Positions 15,751 to 58,684 of a DNA stretch of 64,000 bases are shown piece after piece (the stretch's first letter is position 1; each line of letters opens with the position of its first letter). The notes beneath the pieces were generated by a model, which ran no database searches, had not been told where the DNA came from, and was given only the letters and a program-made list of their open reading frames with translations. Source of the stretch: Saccostrea cucullata (Eukaryota). The stretch is from NCBI RefSeq assembly GCF_032062105.1, contig NW_026921619.1, positions 1 to 64,000 on the forward strand, read 5' to 3'. A program made the translations under genes and the position numbers.

Positions 15751-17099
15751 ATTCAAACCTAATGTGATACTTGTTAGACCAAATTAAATACCCTATTGAG
15801 CTATCCAGCAAGCTATTGAAAACTTTACTGGTATTTCGTAATTCGCTGTAATACTCTAGAAAAGTAGAGATTTTTGTAAGATAATGAATAATATTAACCT
15901 AAAATCCAGAAATGTTGATATCAAAACCAACTCAGCAATATTGTCAGTCCGTGTGATGTGTGCAGTTTAACAATTAGAATACATCCATGAAACATAAATC
16001 GTTTTTGTAAACAGGACACAAGCTCAGATATATTGTTAATGTTTACGTTTCACAGGGTATGTTCCGTGTGTTTTACTCTGCACACATATCTCTGAGCACA
16101 GACTGACAATACTGTAGAGTTGGTTTTGTTTTCCACATTTCTACTCTGAATTATCTGGGGTGCGTTCAACAGCGTATCTCTCCGTCGTCCTGAAAGGAGA
16201 GCTAATCTAGCCGCTACGTAGGGAGAGCTAAATGTAGCTAGCATCATAAATATTTAATGCTAACTGATTTTATCATTCCATGTAAGGTTATAGTATCTAT
16301 ATAAAACAGTGCCTAACCTCTTATCTCCTTACTAATAGCAAGCGACTCAGAGTAAACGACGTCCATGCAGTCTCTGAATTCGCAGATCTCTAACAAGCAG
16401 GGGGAGGATGAAGATCTTGCCCCCTACCACCCCTACCTCTTCATTTTGCTCGGAATTTTCACCAATCCTTTAAATAATGGAATAATTATTTGATAATAAA
16501 TTATTTAATGTTTCCTTTATCTTCCTTATGAGGTCATGCTTCAATAGGTGACCTCATCACTTTAACACTTTTTAGTAAACCCCTGATTTTATTGATGTAC
16601 CCCCTGTACATGTATTACGAAGTTTAGGGCTGCATGGAGTTCTCCTCCCCTTTCCCTGGAATTAACACATCAAATTCATAAATCATTCAAAACTACATTT
16701 AAAAAAAAGAAATAAAACTTTTAAAAATGCACCAATTGTTATTTACTTTTGGGATACATATACTCTATTTGAAGACAAGCAAGTTGAATAATCCTCCAAA
16801 TTCCAATTACATACATTTAGAGAATTCGTAGAAATTGTGCATTTTTTTCCCTGTCAAAAAATTAGGATCGCAACTTTTTTTGGAGAGGATTTGAAAAATA
16901 ATTCTACACATACCATGATTGTAAATTATTGCCTACTTACAACTTAATTTCAGTTCGTAATAAGGTACAACATAAGATTACCTTTGTCTCATTCATATAC
17001 TACAAGTTGTGAAGTATGAAATCCTTACTGATGGACAATATAAACTTACGCTTTTCCCATAATCTTTAAGCGGATACCAGATGTAACAAAAAGTTAATA

Positions 17100-18260
17100 A
17101 GACCAGAGGTCACTTTATATTGTACATCTTTAGGGCGACCATACGTTACTTTATAATGTAAAACAAAAGGGAGACCAGATGCCATCTTCCGTTCTACATC
17201 ATATGGGGGACCAGATGCCACCTTATATTGTACATCAGTAGGAAGACCAGAGGTCACCTTATATTGTACATCAGTTGGGGGACCAGAGGTCACCTTATAT
17301 TGTGCATCAGTTGGGGGACCAGGGGTCACCTTATATTGTAAATCAGTAGGGAGACCAGGGGTCACCTTATATTGTACATGTACATTAGTAGGGGGACCAG
17401 AGGACACCTTATATTATACATCAGTAGGGGGCCAAAGGACACCTTATATTGTGCATCAGTTGGGGGACCAGGGGTCACCTTATATTGTACATCAGTAGGG
17501 AGACCAGGGGTCACCTTATTGTACATGTACATTAGTAGGGGGACCAGAGGACACCTTATATTATACATCAGTAGGGGGCCAAAGGACACCTTATATTGTA
17601 CATCAGTTTGGGGACCAAGGGTCACCTTATATTGTACATCAGTAGGGAGACCAGAGGTCACCTTATATTGTTCATCAGTAGGGAGACCAGGGGTCAGCTT
17701 ATATTGTATATCAGTGGGGGGGGGGGGGCAGTGGACACCTTATATTGTACATCAGTAGGGGTCACCTTATATTGTAAATCAGCAGGGGGACCAGAGGACA
17801 TCTTATATTGTACATCAGTAGGGGGACCAGAGGTCACCCTATATTGTACATCAGTTGGGGGACCAGAGGTCACCTTATATTGTACATCAGTAGGGGGGCA
17901 GAGCCTTCAGATCAGTTTTAACGTTCGTCACTAGGTGGACCAGAGGTAAACTAATATTGTACATCAATAGGTCGACCAAAGTCACCTCATATTTTATTTC
18001 ATTATGGAGACTAAAGGTCACCTTTATAATGTTCAACAGAATGGGGACCAGAGGTCACCTTATACTGTACAAGACCAGACGTCAGATTATATTGTACATC
18101 ATAAGGGGAAACAGAAGACACCTTATACATCAAAGGGGGGGGGTCAGAGGTCACCCTATGTTGTAGATCATTATGGGGACCTTAGGTCACTTTATATTTT
18201 ACAAAACAAGGGGGACCAGATGTATATTGTACATACATAGGGAGACCAGTGGTCCCCATT
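17100..18260 (+). repeat. 36-bp minisatellite (gggggaccagaggtcaccttatattgtacatcagta)n
   Basis: Direct inspection; it generates the 12-aa periodic ORFs in the track. Confidence 0.9.
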
Positions 18261-19563: not shown

Positions 19564-22478
19564 ATGTCTTCTGGTCTCCCTGTTGACTTACAATATAAGA
19601 TGACCTCTGGTCTTCTTATTGATATAAAATATAAAGTGTCTTACGGTTTCTTCATTGTCGTTCAGAATAGTGTGATCATTAGTTTTAAAGATGTACAATA
19701 TATGGTGACCTCTTGTCCCCCTACTGATGTACAATACGAGGGCTGTTCAATAAATAATGTCCTGAACTCTATGACATACAATACAGATATCATATGGCAT
19801 TAAACTTAATTTTATTGAATATTTAATGAATTTATAACAATTTATGTGTTCACTTTTCATCACATAGTTTCATTGTGAGAAGCTGGAAAACAAGGGTATT
19901 CGAGACACTGCATAAAAATTGAATGGTAAAGAATTAGTAAACTAGAGTGAAATTAAGCCGTTCATTAAAGCTGCTGTAAAACTTGTCAAGAATTCCAAAG
20001 AAATACTCACTGAAATATGTAAAATTTACAGCAATCAATGTCTGTTTTATAGACACTTGAACAGTTGGATTTCAATGATAAAAAATTATATAATGTCCAT
20101 CAAAAATGGATACCGTCCTTGCAAACAAAAAATTAAACAACTAATGTATTGTTTGCCAAATTTCAACAAATAATCACTGATGGTGTATGATTGACTATAC
20201 GACACATAGCAAATTTGATAGACATCATTTCGGGAGTAGTTCACATTGTTTTAAAGAAACGTTTGACAGTAAAAAAAAAAAAGCTTAGTACTCAAAAGTC
20301 ACCCTATGTTTTAAAAAATGAGTGAAAACGACTGCGTGTAAGAATATCTATGAACAATTATTAAAAAAATATCAGTAGTTGTAGTTATCCACGTTTGTTT
20401 GAATTTCAAACAGATAATGAAACTTGAATCTATTGCTTAAAACCCTCAAAGCAAAATTTACAATAAGATGTACTTGACAAAAACAGAAAAAGTATGAGAA
20501 GAGCAAAGAATTGCAAGAGTACAAAGACAGATTTATACGCAGTTTTCGTAAATATTAGTGGTCTTGTTGTTCAAATTTGTTTTCGGGGAGGCAGTTTAAT
20601 TTCTGGAGGAATCTAGACGGCAAATTTTTTGCAAAAAATCAAAAGGTTAATGTGAATCAGGAATCCACTACATTAGATTTTTTCATGACAGCGTCCAAAC
20701 CCGTACGCCCTGAAGAGTAATGGAGTCTTGGGGATAAACAGAAAGTTAATGTTATTTCACATTATTAATATTCGCCAGATCTTTCGCCTTTTGACTTGTT
20801 TCCAAGTTTTCAAACTTGAAAAAAACACCTTCCAGAAGGAAGAAACAAGTCCAGGAAATTATAGGATCTGCCATAATCCCTTATACGAAGGGTCATACCC
20901 AAAAATGAGTTCTAAAAACAATCAGAAATTGGATAAAAAATGTTACGGACATGTGTTTAATTAAAAGATAATATTAGGTTAAATCATTATGACTAAATTA
21001 TTGAAAAGTGTCTTTTGTTTCTTTCCGAGCACCGACGACATTATTCATTGAACATCCCTCGTATAAGGTGACCTCTAGTCCCCCTACTGTTGCACAATAT
21101 AAGGTGACCTTTAGTCCTCCTACTGTTGTACAATGTAAGGTGACCTCTAGTCACCCTACTGTTGTACAATATAAGGTGATTTCTAGTCCCCCTTCTGATG
21201 TACAATATAAGTTGACCTCTAGTTCCCCTAGTGATGTAATATAAGGTGACCTCTAGTCCCCTACTGTTGTACAATATAAAGTGAACTCTAGTCCCCCAAC
21301 TGTTGCACAATATAAGGTGACCTCTATTCCCCCTACTGTTGTACAATATAAGGTGAACTCTGGTCTTCTTATTGATGTTCAATATAAGGTGTCCTCTGGT
21401 CTCCTAATTGATGTTCAATATGTGTCCTCTGGTCCCCCTACTGATGTACAATATAAGGTGACCTCTGGTCCCCCTTTTGATGTACAATATAAGATAACCT
21501 CTGTTTCCCCTACTGATGTACAATATAAGGTGTCCTCTAGTCCCCCTACTGTTGTACAATATACGGTGTCCGCTGGTCTCCCTACTGATGTACAATATAA
21601 GATGATCTGTAGTCTCCTAATTGATTTGCAATATAAGGTGTCCTCTTGTCCGCCTACTGATATACAATATAAGGTGACCTCTGGTTCCCCTACTGATGTA
21701 CATTATAAGCTGACCTCTAGTGCCCCTACTGATGTACTGTGTACAATATAAAGTGAACTCTGGTCCCCCTACTGATGTACAATATAAGATGTCCTCTGGT
21801 CCCCCTAATGATGTACAATATAAGATAACCTCATGTCCCGCTACTGATGTACAATATATGATAACCCCTGGTTCCCCTACTGATATGTACAATATAAGGT
21901 GTCCTCTGGTCCCCCTACTGATGTACAATATAAGGTGACCCCTGGTCTCCCTACTGATATACAATATAAGATGACCTCTGGTCTCCTTATTGATTTTCAA
22001 TATAAGGTGTCCTCTGGTCCCCCTACTGATGTACAATATAAGGTGACCTCTGGTCCCCTTACTAATGTACATTATAAGCTGACCTCTAATGCCCCTACTG
22101 ATGTACTGTACAATATAAGGTGACCTCTGATCCCCCTACTGATGTACAATATAAGGTGACCCCTAGTCTCCCTACTGATGTACAATATAAGGTGACCTCT
22201 AGTCCACCTAATCCTGTACAATATAAGGTGACCTCTGGTCTCCTTATTGATGTTCAATATAAGGTGACCTCTGGTCCCCCAAATGATGTACAATATAAGG
22301 TATCCTCAGTTCCCCCGTATTATGTGCAATAAAAAGTTACCTTTGGCCCCCTATTAATTTAAAATGTAAGGTGACCTATGATCCCTCTAATGATGTACAA
22401 TATAACAATTGGGTAGGGTGACAACTGGTCTCCCTACTGATGTATAGTATAATATAAGGTTACCTCTGGTCCCCCTAA
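19564..22478 (-). repeat. Same 36-bp minisatellite in inverted orientation (interrupted by a mariner; runs into the assembly gap)
   Basis: (tactgatgtacaatataaggtgacctctggtccccc)n. Confidence 0.9.
19737..21061 (+). mobile_element. Full-length-sized (1325 bp) decayed mariner transposon; transposase pseudogene
   Basis: TIRs cgagggctgttcaataaataatgtc / gacattattcattgaacatccctcg; TA duplication inside a minisatellite unit; YSPDLSPFD motif remnant (tattcgccagatctttcgccttttgac ~20769); many stops and frameshifts. Confidence 0.85.
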
Positions 22479-50030: not shown

Positions 50031-50536
50031 TTCTATATATTTATTACTAATAAAAAGTCCATCAAAAGAAATGTTTATTATATCGGTCTAACAATTTCAC
50101 TATTGACCGGTCTTACATAAGAATTGTTAGACCGCAACGTCACTCCTCTGTTACGTCACAATTAATCGTTCAATATTGGCGACGCGGAAATGAGCTACAA
50201 GAGTTGTTGCAAACAGCAAAGTAAGGAAGAAGGGAAGAGTATGTCTTGTGATAAATAATTTTTGTGATACAATAGCTATATAATTGATTTTGTTTTTTCT
50301 CAGCTTGATGTTTTATATTTACTGAAGAAGCCATAATTTTCCATATAAAATAATTAATAATATAGCGTGTATTGATTAAATCGATCAATCTTATGTGAGC
50401 AGTGAAGGGTATAACAAAACAGTTATTGACTGGGTATGAGGGCAACATATGATTTGGCCTGCGGCCTCGGGCAACATTTTCACCTTCAGGTCCAACAAAT
50501 CATATGTTGCCCTCATACCCAGTCAATAACTGTATA
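50031..50536. mobile_element. End of a hairpin-terminated non-autonomous element (Crypton-like) inserted in the Gypsy 5' LTR
   Basis: Perfect 38-bp inverted repeat 50419-50456 / 50496-50533 ending ...aactgtataa exactly where LTR homology begins; other end lost in the gap. Confidence 0.55.
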
Positions 50537-50816
50537 ATGTTATATATATTGTGTAATCAGTGCAGTCTACATTATTATTAATTATCGATCAGACGTATTT
50601 TGGGGGACTGGGGCTAAATTTCTACAATGGTAATTATTGCATTCTTGGATTTTAGGATATTGTTTCATATCTTTTACGTTTGTTTGTAAATTGTAAATAT
50701 TGCAACAGAATATATTTAATTCTTTAAACACTGAAATTCTTGTCATTCTTTTATCCTTTGAACTCGGACTTATGTACGGGACTAACCCCTAGACAGTCCC
50801 GTTACATAGATATTTT

Positions 50817-50827
50817 TGGGGGCTCGT
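50817..50827 (+). promoter_or_regulatory. Primer-binding site, tRNA-Pro (second copy 58695-58705)
   Basis: TGGGGGCTCGT is complementary to the 3' end of eukaryotic tRNA-Pro (...ACGAGCCCCCA); 10 nt downstream of the LTR-terminal CA. Confidence 0.8.
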
Positions 50828-50950
50828 TCCGAGGATAAAAGAATATTTTGGTGTTTTATCTTGGATTTTTACGCGTCGATTGACGCTGTATATTTATTTA
50901 CATACAATGTCTTTTTGGGGAGGGTTTCTCGCAATTTTGCGATTTTTCAT

Positions 50951-51364
50951 TTAGTCTCGTTTACCCCAGACTCTCGCTCTCGAGACTTGGGCCGAGCGAG
51001 AGTCTGGTCTGATTCCTATTTAATTTTTGTAACCAGTAGAGGTCGCTAAACCGGCTAACAAGATGGCGATTCCAATGAAAATACATATGAGAATTTACTT
51101 TTTAAACAAAGATATGTGCGTTTTTTGTTCCTTGTAAAGCAGACAGAGGTATTTTATTATAAAACCAGGTAAAAGTAAAGGCGCAGCCTCTGACTTTTTA
51201 AAGAATACAGATCTTAGATTCGAAGAGAATGTGTCAGCCAATGAAAATCCATACCGATTTCTCGGTAAGCCTCGATTTGAAATTACAAAAAATAAATAGG
51301 AATCAGACCAGACTCTCGCTCGGCCCAAGTCTCGAGAGCGAGAGTCTGGGGTAAACGAGACTAA
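50951..51364. mobile_element. 414-bp MITE, 82-bp TIRs (TTAGTCTCG...), 7-bp TSD TTTTCAT
   Basis: TIRs match 81/82; TTTTCAT at 50944-50950 and 51365-51371. Confidence 0.9.
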
Positions 51365-51480
51365 TTTTCATTCCAAGTTTTCTTCGTGTTACTTGTAAAT
51401 CGGATGAACAATCCTCTAAATCTGGAGGAAATTCTAAAATAGGACGTAATGAAACTGCTAAAGTTTCCGACTATGCAAAA

Positions 51481-52785
51481 GTGGAAAATGTTAGATCCGC
51501 GCACTTACTTGACGAAGATTCTGCATACGACACGCTTGTTTCATCGTTTTCTCCGTCATTGTCGATGGAACGTGGATATAAATCAGATAATTCTGATTCC
51601 AAAATAAACACTGATACTGATTGTCCCCGAAATTCATCGTATTTCTCACCTAATCAATCAGAAAACAGATGTTTTTCGCCGATGTATAGACAAAATACAG
51701 ACGAATCCATAGATCACGTGACGTCGTACACAAAGAGTATGGAAAGCCATTCCGATGCTAACTTTACGCGGTCGAAAGCTAGCACACCGCGTGATTCTTA
51801 CGCAAATAAATATGGCATAGACAAACTGAATGTTTGTAAAACACCTCAGGGTAATTTTAAGAAAGAACAAAGTCTTTATGATAATTATGGAAACCGGTCT
51901 GAATCTAAAAGCAATCGTTTTAGAAAATACAAAGAACCGGACGTGTACAATGCAGAGAATACAGAATGGCCCGATTATCTATGTCATTTCGAGCAAGTTG
52001 CAATGTGGAACGAGTGGACAGATGCCGAGAAAGCTACTCAGTTAGCTATGAGTTTGAGAGGTCGAGCGCAAAGAGTTCTGAGTGAGCTCTCGTATAGGGA
52101 ACTAGGAAATTATGCCGAGTTGAAATGCGCGCTAACTCAGCGATTTTCTCCACCTGAGCGTGAAACGGCATACAGGTGCGAGTTTCGTAATAGAAAACGG
52201 AAATCAGGTGAAACTGTGTCCGAGTATGGATACTCGTTAAGGCGACTAGCTAGTCGCGCTTTCCCAACATTTCCTTCAGATATGCATGAAAGTCTTACTG
52301 TTGAACAGTTTGTCACTGGTTTAGGTTGCCACGAACTAAAACGCTACGTGCAGTTTTCTCATCCTAAAACGCTAGATCGCGCTATTCCTCTGGCGCTCGA
52401 ATTTGAGTCGTTTGAAGGGTCTCAGGACACCCCACGGAAACCGCGGGACATTGAAAAACCACATGTTGGTTATGCACGCGCTGTTCTTCCGCCCACAGAT
52501 AAAAATGACAACAATAGTCATGTAAATCTAGAGAAACTAGAGGAATCTATTCAACACATGATTCAGAAAACACTGAAGTCTTTGGAATTTAAAGGGCACA
52601 ATGGTCCTTACGAGAAAAGACCTAATGGTCATAGTGGGCCTCGAGAAATAGTTTGTTACGCTTGTAATGAAACTGGCCATATAAGTTCAAAATGTCCAAA
52701 GAAAAACTCAAAGCCGAAAAATAGAAAGGGAACCCATAATGACTCTAGTCATTTAAACGAAAATGGGCTGAGCCCACGGCCGTAA
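51481..52785 (+). CDS. gag: Gag (capsid + CCHC zinc knuckle); true N-terminus cut off by the MITE
   Basis: CYACNETGHISSKC knuckle; retrotransposon gag-like W..YL..FE...N.W...K...L...L.G.A region; frame is open upstream to the MITE. Confidence 0.9.
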   Translation: MENVRSAHLLDEDSAYDTLVSSFSPSLSMERGYKSDNSDSKINTDTDCPRNSSYFSPNQSENRCFSPMYRQNTDESIDHVTSYTKSMESHSDANFTRSKASTPRDSYANKYGIDKLNVCKTPQGNFKKEQSLYDNYGNRSESKSNRFRKYKEPDVYNAENTEWPDYLCHFEQVAMWNEWTDAEKATQLAMSLRGRAQRVLSELSYRELGNYAELKCALTQRFSPPERETAYRCEFRNRKRKSGETVSEYGYSLRRLASRAFPTFPSDMHESLTVEQFVTGLGCHELKRYVQFSHPKTLDRAIPLALEFESFEGSQDTPRKPRDIEKPHVGYARAVLPPTDKNDNNSHVNLEKLEESIQHMIQKTLKSLEFKGHNGPYEKRPNGHSGPREIVCYACNETGHISSKCPKKNSKPKNRKGTHNDSSHLNENGLSPRP

Positions 52786-55700
52786 GCCCAGCCCCTGAAA
52801 AACCCAGTCATGAAAATAGGCCAAAACAAGACACGAAAGCTCGTTTGTACAGTATTTCAAAAAGTTGTTGGTTTGTCAAAGCAAATCTTTGTAATAGAGA
52901 AATTTATTTTCTTGTTGATACGGGGTCCAGCTGGAGCCTAATATCAAATGAAATTTTTGATTCTTTGCTTGGAAACAAAGACCTAGTTGATCTTCACACT
53001 TCATTGACTACGGCCGATGGGGATTTGCTCTCAGTGAAGGGTAAAACCGATGTAGACTTATGGATTAATGGGAAGGAATTTTTGACAACTGTTGTTGTTG
53101 CTCAACTTGGAGATTTGTCCGGTATACTCGGACTTGATTTTCTTTCAAAATATGAGGCTATAATGGACATGAACCTAGGACGACTACATTCACCATTCTT
53201 TGGTGAGATCGGTTTAGTAAAAGAGGACAAATTACAAAGTACATGCGCACGCATTCATGTGACAGAGACGATTAGCATACCAGCTAAATGCGAGATGTTT
53301 TTGAAAGGAAGCACGGACTGTGGATTTCCACATGGTGTGGAAGGTTTGATAGAACCGCTTTCCGATGATAGACGAATTTTGTTACCGAAATCTGTCGTTA
53401 ATGTACAAAATAACAAAGTGCTTTTCTCTGTACTAAATCCAACAACAGAAACAGTGATACTTAAGAAAAATGCTACCGTGGCGTCCGTACAAACAATTGA
53501 ATCTGTAACTGAATTTGACATCAAAAAAGTCACAGAAAGCCCTCCAGTGGAGACAAGCTTACCAAGCTTACCCGACTATTTGCAGTCCCTGGTCGACAAC
53601 AGCTCGAGTAGCTTAACTGAACAGCAACGCCAGCTGTTAAGCGACACATTAGCACGTAATGCTGACGTTTTTATGGGACCAAATACCCCATTAGGGCGTA
53701 CAGATCTTGTGAAACACACAATAAATACTGACAGAGCTAAGCCAATCAAGTTACCACCAAGGCGTCTCCCTATGCACCAAAAAGCCGTAGCAGATCAAGA
53801 AATAGACAAAATGCTTGAAGCTGATATAATAGAACCAAGCAGTTCACCTTGGGCTGCGCCAATAGTTCTAGTGAAGAAACGGGATGGAACTACACGATTC
53901 TGTGTAGATTATCGAAAGCTAAATAACGTAACGATTAAGGATGCCTATCCCCTGCCACGAATCAATGAATCACTAGACACACTCTCCGGCGCTAAATTCT
54001 TCTGTACTCTCGATCTTGCTAGTGGCTATTGGCAAGTCGCTATGGACGAATCTGATAAAACAAAGACAGCGTTCGCAACCCACAGGGGTCTATTCCAGTT
54101 TAAAGTGTTACCGTTTGGTTTATCTAATAGCCCTGCAACATTTGAGCGCTTGATGGAAGCCGTTCTATCTGGCCTACAATGGGAGAAATGTCTAGTTTAT
54201 CTAGACGACATCATAACATTTGGTGCCACGTTCGAAGAAACTCTAGAGAACCTGACTGTCATCTTTGACAGACTTCGTACTGCGAATCTTAAACTAAAAC
54301 CGAAGAAATGCGCCTTGTTTCAAGAACAAGTAGAATTTCTGGGTCATACTGTATCCCAAGAAGGTATTAGATGTAACCCCGACAAGATATCAGCTGTGAG
54401 GAATTGGCCCGTACCAACTTCCGTTTCAGAAGTACGCAGCTTTATAGGACTCGCATCCTATTATCGCAGGTTTATAAACAATTTTTCGAATGTCGCATAC
54501 CCGCTAACCCGCTTGACACAAAAGAACAGAAAGTTTGAATGGTCAGAGGAATGTGAAAATGCTTTTGATACCTTAAAGCATCTCCTTACAACTGCACCAG
54601 TATTATCGTACCCATCACCAACAGACGAATTTATATTGGATACTGATGCTAGCGCATATGGAGTCGGAGCTGTGCTCTCACAGATGCAAAATGGCGAGGA
54701 AGTAGTAATTGCTTATGGTAGCAAGACACTATCCAGATCCCAAATGGGATATTGCACTACATATCGAGAGCTACTAGCAGTCGTAACCTTTGTCAAACAA
54801 TTCCGACACTATCTATATGGAAGACCCTTTCTATTAAGAACAGACCATTCTTCGTTGATCTGGTTGAAAAATTTTAAGGAGCCAGAAGGTCTACTTGCAC
54901 GCTGGATAATTCTGTTGGAAACCTATGACTTCAAAATTGAACACAGAAAAGGAAGTCTTCATGGCAATGCAGATGGCTTGTCTAGGAAACCAAGGAAACG
55001 TTGCAAAAGAGAAGGATGCAACCAATGCTCCTCCGGAGAATGCTCAGTCAATGCTTTAAGCTCAGTAGCTACTCAAGATTCAGACATTACCAAGACTAAC
55101 AGACCCGAATCCAATTGGGTAGAACAATGGAGTCTCCAGTACTTACAAGAACAACAGGACAAAGACATGGCAATATCAAAGGTTAAACAACTTATCATTA
55201 ATCGGAGAGAACGTCCGAAATTAAATGACCCGTTGCCAACAGTAAACACATTACTTCGCCAGTGGCAGCGACTCAAAGTGGAAAACGATATACTCTACAG
55301 AGTATGCGAAGAAAATGAAAACGAAAGTCATCTCCAGTTAGTTGCCCCAAAGTCTATTAGGAGAGAAATTATGCAACATTTGCATAACAGTAAGACGTCG
55401 GGACATCTTGGACGCGAGAGAACTCTGCATTCTATCAGAAATCGTTTTTATTGGCCAGGAATGACTGACGATGTTGCACGCTGGTGTCAAACTTGTCAAC
55501 CTTGTTCAAAGAAAAAGCCAGGTCCTGGACAAGGGAAGTCCCCAATGCAACACCATGAAGTATTTGGTCCTATGGAATGTCTTGCCATCGACATCTTAGG
55601 TCCCCTACCATTAACTAGAGAAGGAAAACAATACATTATGGTTGTTGGAGATTATTTTTCCAAATGGAAAGAGGCATTTGCATTGGAGGATCATACAGCA

Positions 55701-56630
55701 CAGACGGTTGCTGATAAGCTTGTAACAGAAGTAATATGCCGCTTAGGCATACCATTTAGAATCCATACCGACCAAGGTCGTGAATTCGAATCGGCACTGT
55801 TTGCTGAGTTGTGTTCTCTCTTGGAGATAATAAAATCCCGAACCACGCCATATCACCCTCAATCCGACGGTATGGTAGAGAGATTCAACCGCACACTCCA
55901 GCAAATGTTGTCTATCTTTGTCAATGAGAACAGATCTAATTGGGATGACCACTTGCCATATTTAATGATGGCCTACCGTGCCACGGTTCACGAGAGTACA
56001 AAATGTACTCCCAATCTGGTCATGTTAGGGAGAGAAATCAATCTACCCATAGATGTTATAGCTGGTACAACTCCTACAAATACACCAGAGATTGGCTGCT
56101 ATCATTCTTACGTAGAGTGGATTCGCAATACCATGGAAATGACATATGGAATTGTTCATGAAAACTTGCAATCAAGTTTTAAGAAACAGAAACGATACCA
56201 TGATGTTAGACTGAAGCCACGGGAGTTTGCAATAGACGATCTGGTATGGAGATGGTACCCACCAAAAGCAAACCAGAAATTAGGATCCGGTTGGACAGGA
56301 CCCTACAGGGTTGTTCGGAAATTCTCAGACATAACCTATGAGATAAAACATGAAACAACAGGAAAAACAGTTGTTGTCCATGTTGATCATCTGAAGCAAC
56401 TTCACGGTAACGGAATTGCAGAGAATCAATATGATTCTGACAATGACCAAGACGAATCTTGCCTATACGATGAAAATTCAGATTCCGAATATGATACTAT
56501 GAGTGATCGGGAGGAAATTGAGCCTTTGGCTTGCAAATCGCCAGATCTGGATGCGGTTCAATCGAGACGCGCTGATGCTTTCTCGCGGAAAGGAAGGCTC
56601 ATAAAACCCGTTTCTCGATATTCTCCTTAG
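52749..56630 (+). CDS. pol: Pol: aspartic protease, RT, RNase H, integrase (expressed as Gag-Pol by frameshift)
   Basis: LVDTGSS; RFCVDYRKLN, LPFGL, YLDDII; LDTDAS; H...GHLG...CQTC, DILGP, TDQGREF, ERFNRTL; WTGPY. Confidence 0.95.
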   Translation, partial: SFKRKWAEPTAVSPAPEKPSHENRPKQDTKARLYSISKSCWFVKANLCNREIYFLVDTGSSWSLISNEIFDSLLGNKDLVDLHTSLTTADGDLLSVKGKTDVDLWINGKEFLTTVVVAQLGDLSGILGLDFLSKYEAIMDMNLGRLHSPFFGEIGLVKEDKLQSTCARIHVTETISIPAKCEMFLKGSTDCGFPHGVEGLIEPLSDDRRILLPKSVVNVQNNKVLFSVLNPTTETVILKKNATVASVQTIESVTEFDIKKVTESPPVETSLPSLPDYLQSLVDNSSSSLTEQQRQLLSDTLARNADVFMGPNTPLGRTDLVKHTINTDRAKPIKLPPRRLPMHQKAVADQEIDKMLEADIIEPSSSPWAAPIVLVKKRDGTTRFCVDYRKLNNVTIKDAYPLPRINESLDTLSGAKFFCTLDLASGYWQVAMDESDKTKTAFATHRGLFQFKVLPFGLSNSPATFERLMEAVLSGLQWEKCLVYLDDIITFGATFEETLENLTVIFDRLRTANLKLKPKKCALFQEQVEFLGHTVSQEGIRCNPDKISAVRNWPVPTSVSEVRSFIGLASYYRRFINNFSNVAYPLTRLTQKNRKFEWSEECENAFDTLKHLLTTAPVLSYPSPTDEFILDTDASAYGVGAVLSQMQNGEEVVIAYGSKTLSRSQMGYCTTYRELLAVVTFVKQFRHYLYGRPFLLRTDHSSLIWLKNFKEPEGLLARWIILLETYDFKIEHRKGSLHGNADGLSRKPRKRCKREGCNQCSSGECSVNALSSVATQDSDITKTNRPESNWVEQWSLQYLQEQQDKDMAISKVKQLIINRRERPKLNDPLPTVNTLLRQWQRLKVENDILYRVCEENENESHLQLVAPKSIRREIMQHLHNSKTSGHLGRERTLHSIRNRFYWPGMTDDVARWCQTCQPCSKKKPGPGQGKSPMQHHEVFGPMECLAIDILGPLPLTREGKQYIMVVGDYFSKWKEAFALEDHTAQTVADKLVTEVICRLGIPFRIHTDQGREFESALFAELCSLLEIIKSRTTPYHPQSDGMVERFNRTLQQMLSIFVNENRSNWDDHLPYLMMAYRATVHESTKCTPNLVMLGREINLPIDVIAGTTPTNTPEIGCYHSYVEWIRNTMEMTYGIVHENLQSSFKKQKRYHDVRLKPREFAIDDLVWRWYPPKANQKLGSGWTGPYRVVRKFSDITYEIKHETTGKTVVVHVDHLKQLHGNGIAENQYDSDNDQDESCLYDENSDSEYDTMSDREEIEPLACKSPDLDAVQSRRADAFSRKGRLIKPVSRYSP
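52752..52794 (+). promoter_or_regulatory. -1 programmed ribosomal frameshift signal (second copy 60630-60672)
   Basis: T TTA AAC in gag phase, 6-nt spacer, GC-rich stem GGGCTG...CAGCCC; the -1 frame is open from 52749 into pol. Confidence 0.8.
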
Positions 56631-57060
56631 AAAAATAAATAAGATAAATATATTTCTTGGGGGTGGTGTTTATGTTATTTGTTTGTTTTAATGAAGTTTA
56701 ATCCTATGGAAGACCCAATTTTATGTCTGTTGAGGACATGATGACATGTAGTACACGGTATAAATTCCTAAGGTTGGAATTGGGTAGATTTGTTTTGTAT
56801 ACACCATGGGTTTAGCTTTCGGTGTCTTATCTACCAGGTGTTATTTCCCACGAGAGAATAGTGATTCTCTGAGTGATGGGATGTGTACTTGTTGTGTCGG
56901 AGAAATGACACTTGTCATTGTTGTATAATTGGGTGGGGATAAGTTATACAGTTTATTTATTTTCCTTTCCAACTCTTTGCTGTTATAATGCAAGGTTTAT
57001 TAGTAAAAAGAAAATCTTCATACAGTTCTTTAATGTTGAACAAAATTGATTCTATTTCAG

Positions 57061-57948
57061 GCTACAGATTTTCTAGAGTTATTTGCGGATCTGAGTGAAG
57101 TCAATGCTGTCCTTGGACAGTGCCAGACCGACTATATTGAAGTCCTCTACGATCCTTCAGGAATGATCTGCCCCGTGCTAGGATGCAGAGGGACGAAGTT
57201 TCCTTCCAAATCAAAATTCTCCCGACACTGGGAGGAGAGACACAAACTGTATGTCACCAAATTTATATGTTCCGTTAATGGGTGTAGCGCGGAGTGTAGG
57301 CGGAAATCAGACATGAGAACTCACATTCGTCGAGCACATGAGAGCAATCCAGACCGAGTGGAGTTTATACTCACTAAGTGTGAGATGATTCACAGGGAGA
57401 ACAAGGGTTATTTAGACCCAGGTCTTTACATATTTAAAGGAGGATGCCTGAGAGAAACTACTGACCCAGTTGTAACCCAGGAACAGGAGAAGTCCACTAC
57501 GGATGATGGAATAACGCCGGTGGATGTGGAGAGTAGATGTTCTACTCAGACTGAGCCAACTGCACCAACAACCGACCTCAAGGAAGAAGAGCTGGAGACC
57601 AGCAGCAAGAAGAGAAAGCTTACTCTCCAGGAGTACAGGGACAGGGAGGTCCTAGATCACCGGTCGACAGGGACCCAAACAACGTGGGTGAACCTACCCA
57701 GCCTTGACCTACCAAACCTCCCAGAGGCAGGTAATTCAGAGGAATTGCAGTCGTGCCTCATGTGGCTGTGCAACAGCATGGACGTAGTAGGAAGAGCGAG
57801 AGCACTGGTGAAAAAGAGGATAGAGCACGGTGAGCGAACGGAACTGGAGCGAGAGAGGGAAATGAGGCGTCAACTGGAGAAGAAGAACCGGGAATTAGAG
57901 AGTGAGATCAGAAAATTACGATCTATGGACAAACTTTTCGAGGAGTAA
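57061..57948 (+). CDS. ORF3: two C2H2-type zinc fingers, basic NLS-like motif, C-terminal coiled coil; probably a spliced exon
   Basis: CPVLGC-x13-H-x4-H and CSVNGC-x12-H-x4-H; SKKRKL; E/R/K/L-rich C-terminus; no ATG at the ORF start but acceptor-like ttctatttcag|G at 57060/57061; first ATG at 57163. Confidence 0.75.
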   Translation, partial: ATDFLELFADLSEVNAVLGQCQTDYIEVLYDPSGMICPVLGCRGTKFPSKSKFSRHWEERHKLYVTKFICSVNGCSAECRRKSDMRTHIRRAHESNPDRVEFILTKCEMIHRENKGYLDPGLYIFKGGCLRETTDPVVTQEQEKSTTDDGITPVDVESRCSTQTEPTAPTTDLKEEELETSSKKRKLTLQEYRDREVLDHRSTGTQTTWVNLPSLDLPNLPEAGNSEELQSCLMWLCNSMDVVGRARALVKKRIEHGERTELEREREMRRQLEKKNRELESEIRKLRSMDKLFEE

Positions 57949-58207: not shown

Positions 58208-58220
58208 AAGGAAGGGGGAG
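58208..58220 (+). promoter_or_regulatory. Polypurine tract
   Basis: AAGGAAGGGGGAG immediately before the LTR-initial TG. Confidence 0.85.
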
Positions 58221-58684
58221 TGTGGTGGTTTTTACATGTGTTTAATTAAATTTGTATGTAATTACAGAGTATTTATGTATATGTACCTTACTTTATTCAT
58301 ATTTCCCTCTATTTGTCATTACTTGTTGTTTAGAGTTATTCCCCTTTGTTTATAACCCGTTTGGGTTGGGCGCGCCCGGGTCTATAGTACCCGGCCGGGG
58401 TTTACTATTATTATATGTTATATATATTGTGTAATCAGTGCAGTCTACATTATTATTAATTATCGATCAGACGTATTTTGGGGGACTGGGGCTAAATTTC
58501 TACAATGGTAATTATTGCATTCTTGGATTTTAGGATATTGTTTCATATCTTTTACGTTTGTTTGTAAATTGTAAATATTGCAACAGAATATATTTAATTC
58601 TTTAAACACTGAAATTCTTGTCATTCTTTTATCCTTTGAACTCGGACTTATGTACGGGACTAACCCCTAGACAGTCCCGTTACA
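58221..58684 (+). repeat. Shared central LTR (464 bp, TGT...ACA)
   Basis: Preceded by the PPT and followed by the PBS; 58415-58684 matches 50537-50806. Confidence 0.9.

Follow-up and report, generated by a model that had tools for sequence, protein, structure and literature searches.

The window, the 64,000-nucleotide stretch of Saccostrea cucullata DNA analyzed here, carries a Gypsy element in which an additional open reading frame, ORF3, follows pol on the forward strand. The 5' LTR of this copy (50537..50806, +) comprises LTR positions 195-464 only and holds a putative start codon overlapping a predicted splice donor, ATG/GTAATT (50627..50635, +; the slash marks the exon border), with the same site at 58505-58513 in the next LTR. 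About 10 nt past the LTR lies the primer-binding site (50817..50835, +), which we take to be of the tRNA-Pro type. It is followed by gag (50907..52785, +), which a MITE (50951..51364, no strand assigned; inverted ends of ~80 nt) interrupts past codon 15, and by pol (52749..56630, +), whose 1293 aa comprise protease, RT, RNase H, integrase, and a C-terminal SH3-like domain. Downstream of ORF3 are the polypurine tract (58208..58220, +) and a 464-bp TG..CA LTR (58221..58684, +) common to the next unit, with a GC-rich palindromic block at LTR positions 144-176. The order of gag and then protease-RT-RNase H-integrase, together with the TG..CA LTRs, primer-binding site, polypurine tract, and 4-bp target duplication, identifies a Ty3/Gypsy LTR retrotransposon. 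Target duplications were perfect at 4 bp in 8 of 9 dispersed insertions examined, at mostly AT-rich sites. Membership in Troyka, which has CG..CG termini and a 3-bp target duplication (PMC12440569), was rejected on both features.

Six units of this element stand in tandem with shared LTRs, the copy described here being the first. The units measure 7878 bp each, and the last reaches contig position 98074. ORF3 is open in 6/6 units with at most one base difference among them, and the same MITE interrupts gag in 6/6 units and is missing from all dispersed copies fetched. The array is either a recent amplification or an assembly artefact; tandem spacing also occurs in other relatives (C15401, C1347). 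Many RNA reads cover the MITE with loose ends at its borders, which marks it as a common independent repeat. A second small inverted-repeat element (~50405-50535) sits next to the cut 5' LTR, and a similar sequence interrupts the 5' LTR of another copy (L036).

ORF3 encodes a double zinc-finger protein

The open frame spans 57040-57948 (+), 302 aa from stop to stop. A T-rich putative splice acceptor ending in AG (57053..57060, +), invariant in 10 aligned family copies, leads with its AG at 57059-57060 directly into an in-frame GCT, downstream of which ORF3 proper (57061..57948, +) retains 295 codons plus stop. The earliest in-frame ATG is codon 35, at 57163. A reading made from this sequence alone had described an intact frame between pol and the polypurine tract that lacks an initial ATG and follows an acceptor-like sequence in phase 0, and each of these points is borne out. 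Its start at 57046 falls inside the open frame, two codons in, and five codons before the putative acceptor.

From its N-terminus, the predicted protein begins with an acidic and hydrophobic segment (57061..57162, +; aa 1-34, net charge -7), which is under purifying selection although it lies 5' of the earliest ATG. The double C2H2 zinc-finger domain follows (57163..57444, +; aa 35-128, net +9) and ends in an N-x-x-Y-x-D-P-G motif; its fingers, C37-x4-C-x13-H-x4-H and C70-x4-C-x12-H-x4-H, have the spacing that had been read from the sequence. The T/E-rich disordered linker (57445..57603, +; aa 129-181) is 40% T/E with net charge -10 and contains an earlier TQT at aa 162. Immediately after it, SKKRKL (57604..57621, +; aa 182-187) is a candidate nuclear localization signal, a motif class to which we assign it by its sequence. 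A conserved TQT at aa 205 (57655..57687, +) is a putative LC8/DYNLL-binding motif, and the C-terminus forms one long helix (57736..57936, +), a conserved amphipathic part and then a charged coiled coil, that spans aa 226-292 in the AlphaFold model. The linker, SKKRKL, and coiled coil thus agree with the initial description, as does the lack of env-type membrane features. The highest 19-residue Kyte-Doolittle mean in ORF3 is only 0.96, and there is therefore no membrane segment. An env glycoprotein was rejected on this maximum and the acidic N-terminus; searches of Pfam and viral fold libraries listed no viral fusion protein.

The finger region (aa ~21-133) is modelled as a single compact domain (pLDDT 94, pTM 0.77) made of the two fingers, a helix, and the conserved N-x-x-Y-x-D-P-G motif. 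Model and profile agree on C-C-H-H ligands in a beta-beta-alpha fold, as in C2H2 fingers; the Pfam zf-C2H2 match (E 0.007) lies below the curated cut-off. Profile searches matched CTCF (4e-8), TFIIIA (second best), and Tramtrack. Fold searches of PDB and viral libraries gave nothing at E<=0.001 or Z 8 (best Z 5.5), with DNA-bound fingers as the top structural rows, all weak, and a homologue, P0002, fell only into generic finger clusters of a protein atlas (0.86-0.91). Across 63 sequences, the finger 1 recognition helix has K3 in 42 and R6 in 50, and that of finger 2 has R-1 in 56 and D3 in 52. Conservation at these positions is expected for nucleic-acid contacts under the finger code. The pattern favors nucleic-acid binding by the predicted fingers and does not choose among the roles considered below.

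A protein search among 1.84 billion representatives gave 238 matches. Full-length proteins of ORF3 type make up many of the 150 listed, Mytilus and Magallana entries among them, and others are long proteins from Sinanodonta, Gigantopelta, and Haliotis in which the finger module is repeated. Four long proteins (P0007, P0010, P0044, and P0084, three of them from molluscs) contain many copies of this double-finger module, for which Pfam has no dedicated family, and some of the four also have G-patch or RRM domains. K1RA86 (Magallana gigas), CAC5419742.1 and relatives (Mytilus coruscus), and VDI67218.1 (M. galloprovincialis) share the ORF3 architecture at 35-49% identity, and these mussel and oyster relatives are annotated as uncharacterized or C2H2 host proteins; one M. 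coruscus gene model fuses an integrase C-terminus with an ORF3 C-terminus. This suggests that some host-annotated 'C2H2-type' proteins of mussels and oysters may be retrotransposon genes. More distant Gypsy families carry a shorter ORF3 subtype (157-210 aa) in which both TQT and coil are absent and a basic helix bears an [NS]RD[EQ] motif, and this subtype does not keep the recognition-helix residues.

Of the 45 homologues complete in the region just ahead of the C-terminal helix (8 truncated ones left out), 32 have a QT there, compared with 8.9% of shuffles. LC8 motifs sit in disordered segments beside coiled coils (PMC3078936), and the TQT-type motif of ORF3, in a disordered stretch near the coiled coil, has the sequence characteristics of an LC8/DYNLL client. 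Complex prediction for LC8 (two copies, G000, L090) with ORF3 aa 188-228 gave no verdict (score 0.01), peptides being outside the calibration of the tool.

ORF3 is an old, selected, element-borne gene

A genome search with ORF3 (235 candidates, 150 scored) gave 120 matches, and 10-kb stretches were fetched at 55 match sites. Gypsy pol pieces lie upstream on the same strand at 44 of these 55 loci; pol is missing upstream at 10, and one gave no ORF3 match on re-search. Of these 10 loci without pol, eight were compared with full elements, and each matches their ORF3 region at 79-93% DNA identity, which makes them look like truncated copies. A frame-broken, truncated ORF3 fragment without pol (L076-L079) recurs in at least four places, probably as part of another repeat.

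So as not to bias the sample toward ORF3, we chose 40 further elements by integrase alone, among 150 integrase matches. The integrase clade of the window's element takes in 32 of them. Downstream of pol, 27 of the 32 encode the finger domain (E<1e-4) and three show no such domain; the remaining two are a decayed case (E 2e-4) and an element that a contig end truncates. The finger domain is present in 0/8 elements of the outgroup (support 1.0) at the same threshold. Three of these eight instead encode another type of zinc-finger protein in the same place, 218-243 aa long and containing QT motifs. These outgroup frames (L125:1071-, L129:1219-, and L130:1312-, oriented coordinates) combine C2HC and C2H2 fingers with one or two LC8-type QT motifs. 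Over 32 sequences, the integrase tree and the finger tree are correlated (Spearman 0.88) and share 6/10 and 7/10 of their strong splits, with differences in deep branches.

Purifying selection is evident from ORF3 dN/dS of 0.08-0.18 against five family copies, compared with 0.12-0.15 for pol, and of 0.14 between two sister-family copies, and ORF3 is kept across families whose dS is saturated. Locus context, co-inheritance with integrase, and dN/dS together establish that ORF3 is an old, selected gene borne by the element, in agreement with its initial description as a non-env accessory gene encoded by the retrotransposon. We encountered neither general decay of the frame, nor origin as a stray host-gene fragment at these loci, nor an independent insertion. 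It is accordingly very improbable that ORF3 is a captured host fragment or passenger useless to its element. The 10 loci without upstream pol could be read that way, and the repeated occurrence of the same finger domain in large mollusc proteins makes a host origin of the domain plausible; against a passenger stand the truncated-copy likeness of all tested pol-less loci, the retention across saturated families, and dN/dS near 0.1, which largely refutes neutrality.

ORF3 expression: splicing or an internal promoter

Conserved signals suggest that ORF3 is probably made by splicing from the LTR. Against four copies, the differences in ORF3 codons 1-10, which come before any ATG, are all synonymous (2-6 per copy), and a fifth copy has one non-synonymous difference. 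The donor AATG/GTAA is invariant in 10/10 LTRs of the window's family, but the LTR as a whole is 63% invariant, with the donor just one among 13 invariant runs. When a T-rich acceptor was required no more than 22 nt from the ORF3 start, a rule set after viewing the families, 9/11 families had one (8/10 excluding the window's family; background 7.6%). Across families, acceptors near the start fall in each of the three phases. Most families have an ATG after the acceptor, which the window's family lacks. Two sister copies with an AG/ATG acceptor have ACG/GT at the LTR donor, and a sister copy with AG/ATC, a single decayed insertion present on two contigs, has ATG/GT.

These signals weaken with distance. 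A fresh set of 22 was examined, one of them without an ATG; the strict acceptor rule held in 8/21, several of them near-duplicates, against a background of 9%, and several of the misses have a looser YAG at the start. Among the nearer families, strong LTR donors were found in 10/13 in sense and 6/13 in antisense, and in the fresh set in only 4/11 in sense and 9/11 in antisense, which does not support a strong LTR donor as a general rule in distant families. A conserved donor together with an acceptor is seen in the window's family and its sister.

The sequence-only reading had called for RNA junctions ending at 57061. We found no LTR-to-ORF3 junction in eight RNA runs, four compared with the window unit and four with another copy (L039). 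This set comprises three raw-read runs, of which ~45% each was read, with 64-197 reads aligned and a depth of ~1-3 at the acceptor, and five contig sets; the RNA reads are mostly 90-99% alike and derive from related copies. Contigs of three runs (X1, X2, X7), whose status as RNA is a guess, cross the acceptor unspliced. Oligo-dT reads cover the 3' half of ORF3 more deeply than pol, a difference explicable by 3' bias alone. Four reads of run X23 leave pol at position 54470 and continue in sequence that resembles the 3' end of ORF3; they probably represent an internally deleted copy. The earlier proposal of a spliced subgenomic RNA thus draws support from the conserved donor and acceptor and from selection on codons 1-10, and none from an RNA junction.

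Unspliced transcription from an internal promoter just upstream of ORF3 would account for the read-through contigs and for a contig over ORF3 in X7 that starts 58 nt 5' of it. An invariant TATAAT-containing block at 56979-56989 and the presence of an own ATG in most families also fit this explanation. Contigs, however, are unable to show where transcription starts, and in the window copy the first ATG after the acceptor, at +43, is not in frame. A non-AUG start would then be needed to explain the selection on codons 1-10, and the recurrence of acceptors in all three phases speaks for splicing. We consider an internal promoter rather unlikely.

Discussion

We propose, at somewhat less than even confidence, that ORF3 is a nuclear, dimeric DNA-binding protein that activates the LTR of its own element and is likely expressed from a spliced subgenomic RNA. 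Together, an acidic N-terminus, basic fingers, a nuclear signal, an LC8-type motif, and a coiled coil would make up a dimeric transcription factor. In the proposed mechanism, the LTR donor ATG/GT (50627-50635) would join the acceptor at 57060 and supply the missing ATG in phase 0. The fingers would bind DNA, possibly a GC-rich palindrome in U3, the coiled coil would dimerize ORF3 with help from LC8 bound at the TQT, and the acidic N-terminus would activate transcription, so that a positive feedback loop would result, as with foamy-virus Tas. The U3 of the LTRs contains a CpG-rich block that is often palindromic. The predicted site CGG[GT], derived from the finger code and chosen after viewing the LTRs, is mildly enriched over 8 LTRs that are not independent (52 vs 36), and the window LTR has 7 vs 4.5 (P 0.12). 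Extended to the whole group, the proposal would be that a branch of mollusc Gypsy elements encodes its own sequence-specific, LTR-activating transcription factor, LC8-dimerized and built on a captured double finger, and that its sister branch combines the same LC8 motif with another kind of finger; we regard this broader version as less likely than not.

Other roles of the same protein deserve consideration. A donor within the LTR creates an intron-retention problem for the element, and ORF3, translated from the spliced RNA, could act as a CERV- or Rev-like factor that releases unspliced genomic RNA from the nucleus. TFIIIA, the second-best profile match, binds RNA. The C. elegans element Cer1 meets intron retention with the spliced nuclear protein CERV (PMC10309623). 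An export role is nevertheless unlikely given the conservation at classic DNA-contact positions, the DNA-bound fingers, all weak, among the best structural rows, and the lack of CERV likeness in any search.

The conserved TQT and the CpG-rich LTR block would also suit a factor acting on element chromatin, either keeping silencing off or limiting the element's own expression. LC8 is required for piRNA-guided co-transcriptional silencing in Drosophila (PMC7861614). One or two TQT sites, however, fit plain dimerization equally well, and we judge this role distinctly unlikely. Still more remote is guidance of the integration complex, by dynein-linked transport or by a tether to target DNA, which we hold to be quite improbable. 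The nuclear signal, the LC8-type motif, and the regular target duplications at AT-rich sites are compatible with such guidance, but in every locus read ORF3 stands as its own gene with no fusion to integrase, and the targets look low in information compared with the basic, G-reading finger residues. LTR activation by ORF3 thus remains our preferred proposal.

Animal Gypsy elements are usually viewed as gag-pol elements to which env is sometimes added. Foamy-virus Tas is a retroviral protein made from an internal promoter, and it is not known to have C2H2 fingers. In the articles compared here, extra genes with partial likeness to ORF3 recur. Tas is encoded just before the 3' LTR and regulates transcription (PMC7828637); ORF3 occupies the same place, its regulator role being putative. 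CERV of Cer1 is spliced and nuclear, with a KRKK signal, a zipper, and a cysteine finger (PMC10309623), and ORF3 resembles it as a candidate nuclear accessory protein of a Gypsy-type element with a putative spliced mRNA, a KRKK-type signal, a zipper, and fingers. CERV, at 517 aa, shares exons with gag, has a GTPase-like domain, and exports RNA, whereas ORF3 follows pol and has two C2H2 fingers; no homology between them was found. The ORF3s of bdelloid rotifer LTR elements lie in sense between pol and LTR, are family-specific, and are typically spliced, as ORF3 putatively is here, but they are of GDSL esterase, DEDDy exonuclease, coiled-coil, or membrane types, and the word 'zinc' is missing from the main text of that report (PMC5408684). 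TRP28 of plant Retand, likewise a lineage-wide extra ORF between pol and the 3' LTR and a proposed DNA-binding regulator, differs in being antisense, plant-only, and of unrelated domain (PMC11963269). Errantivirus env shares position and likely splicing with ORF3, which has no signal, membrane segment, or env family match; the main text of this survey of env-carrying metazoan Gypsy elements contains neither 'zinc finger' nor 'C2H2' (PMC13524379).

Extra ORFs after pol are thus already known from env, the rotifer ORF3s, and TRP28, as is a spliced nuclear accessory protein from CERV. The literature searched holds no description of ORF3, although Repbase reports, most subscription papers, and supplements lie outside it and may have one. 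ORF3 is a real and apparently undescribed type of accessory gene. In the same literature, CERV is the one tested nuclear accessory protein, and a zinc-finger gene selected across a clade offers a handle on LTR-element self-regulation or silencing resistance in invertebrates. If our proposal is true, simple retrotransposons would possess the regulatory logic of complex retroviruses.

The surroundings of the element are themselves repetitive. The Gypsy array, from 50537, directly adjoins a second tandem array (~22994-49860) of about eight near-identical 3605-bp units. Each of the two units read has a ~1000-aa ORF of Penelope-like look, with what we take, by eye, to be an RT and a GIY-YIG-type end. 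The N-terminal part of this ORF contains an OTU protease domain (Pfam E 5e-10), a domain that, in the literature searched, is noted only for Helentrons. Arrays of a 36-bp minisatellite lie at ~17097-18214 and ~20982-22402.
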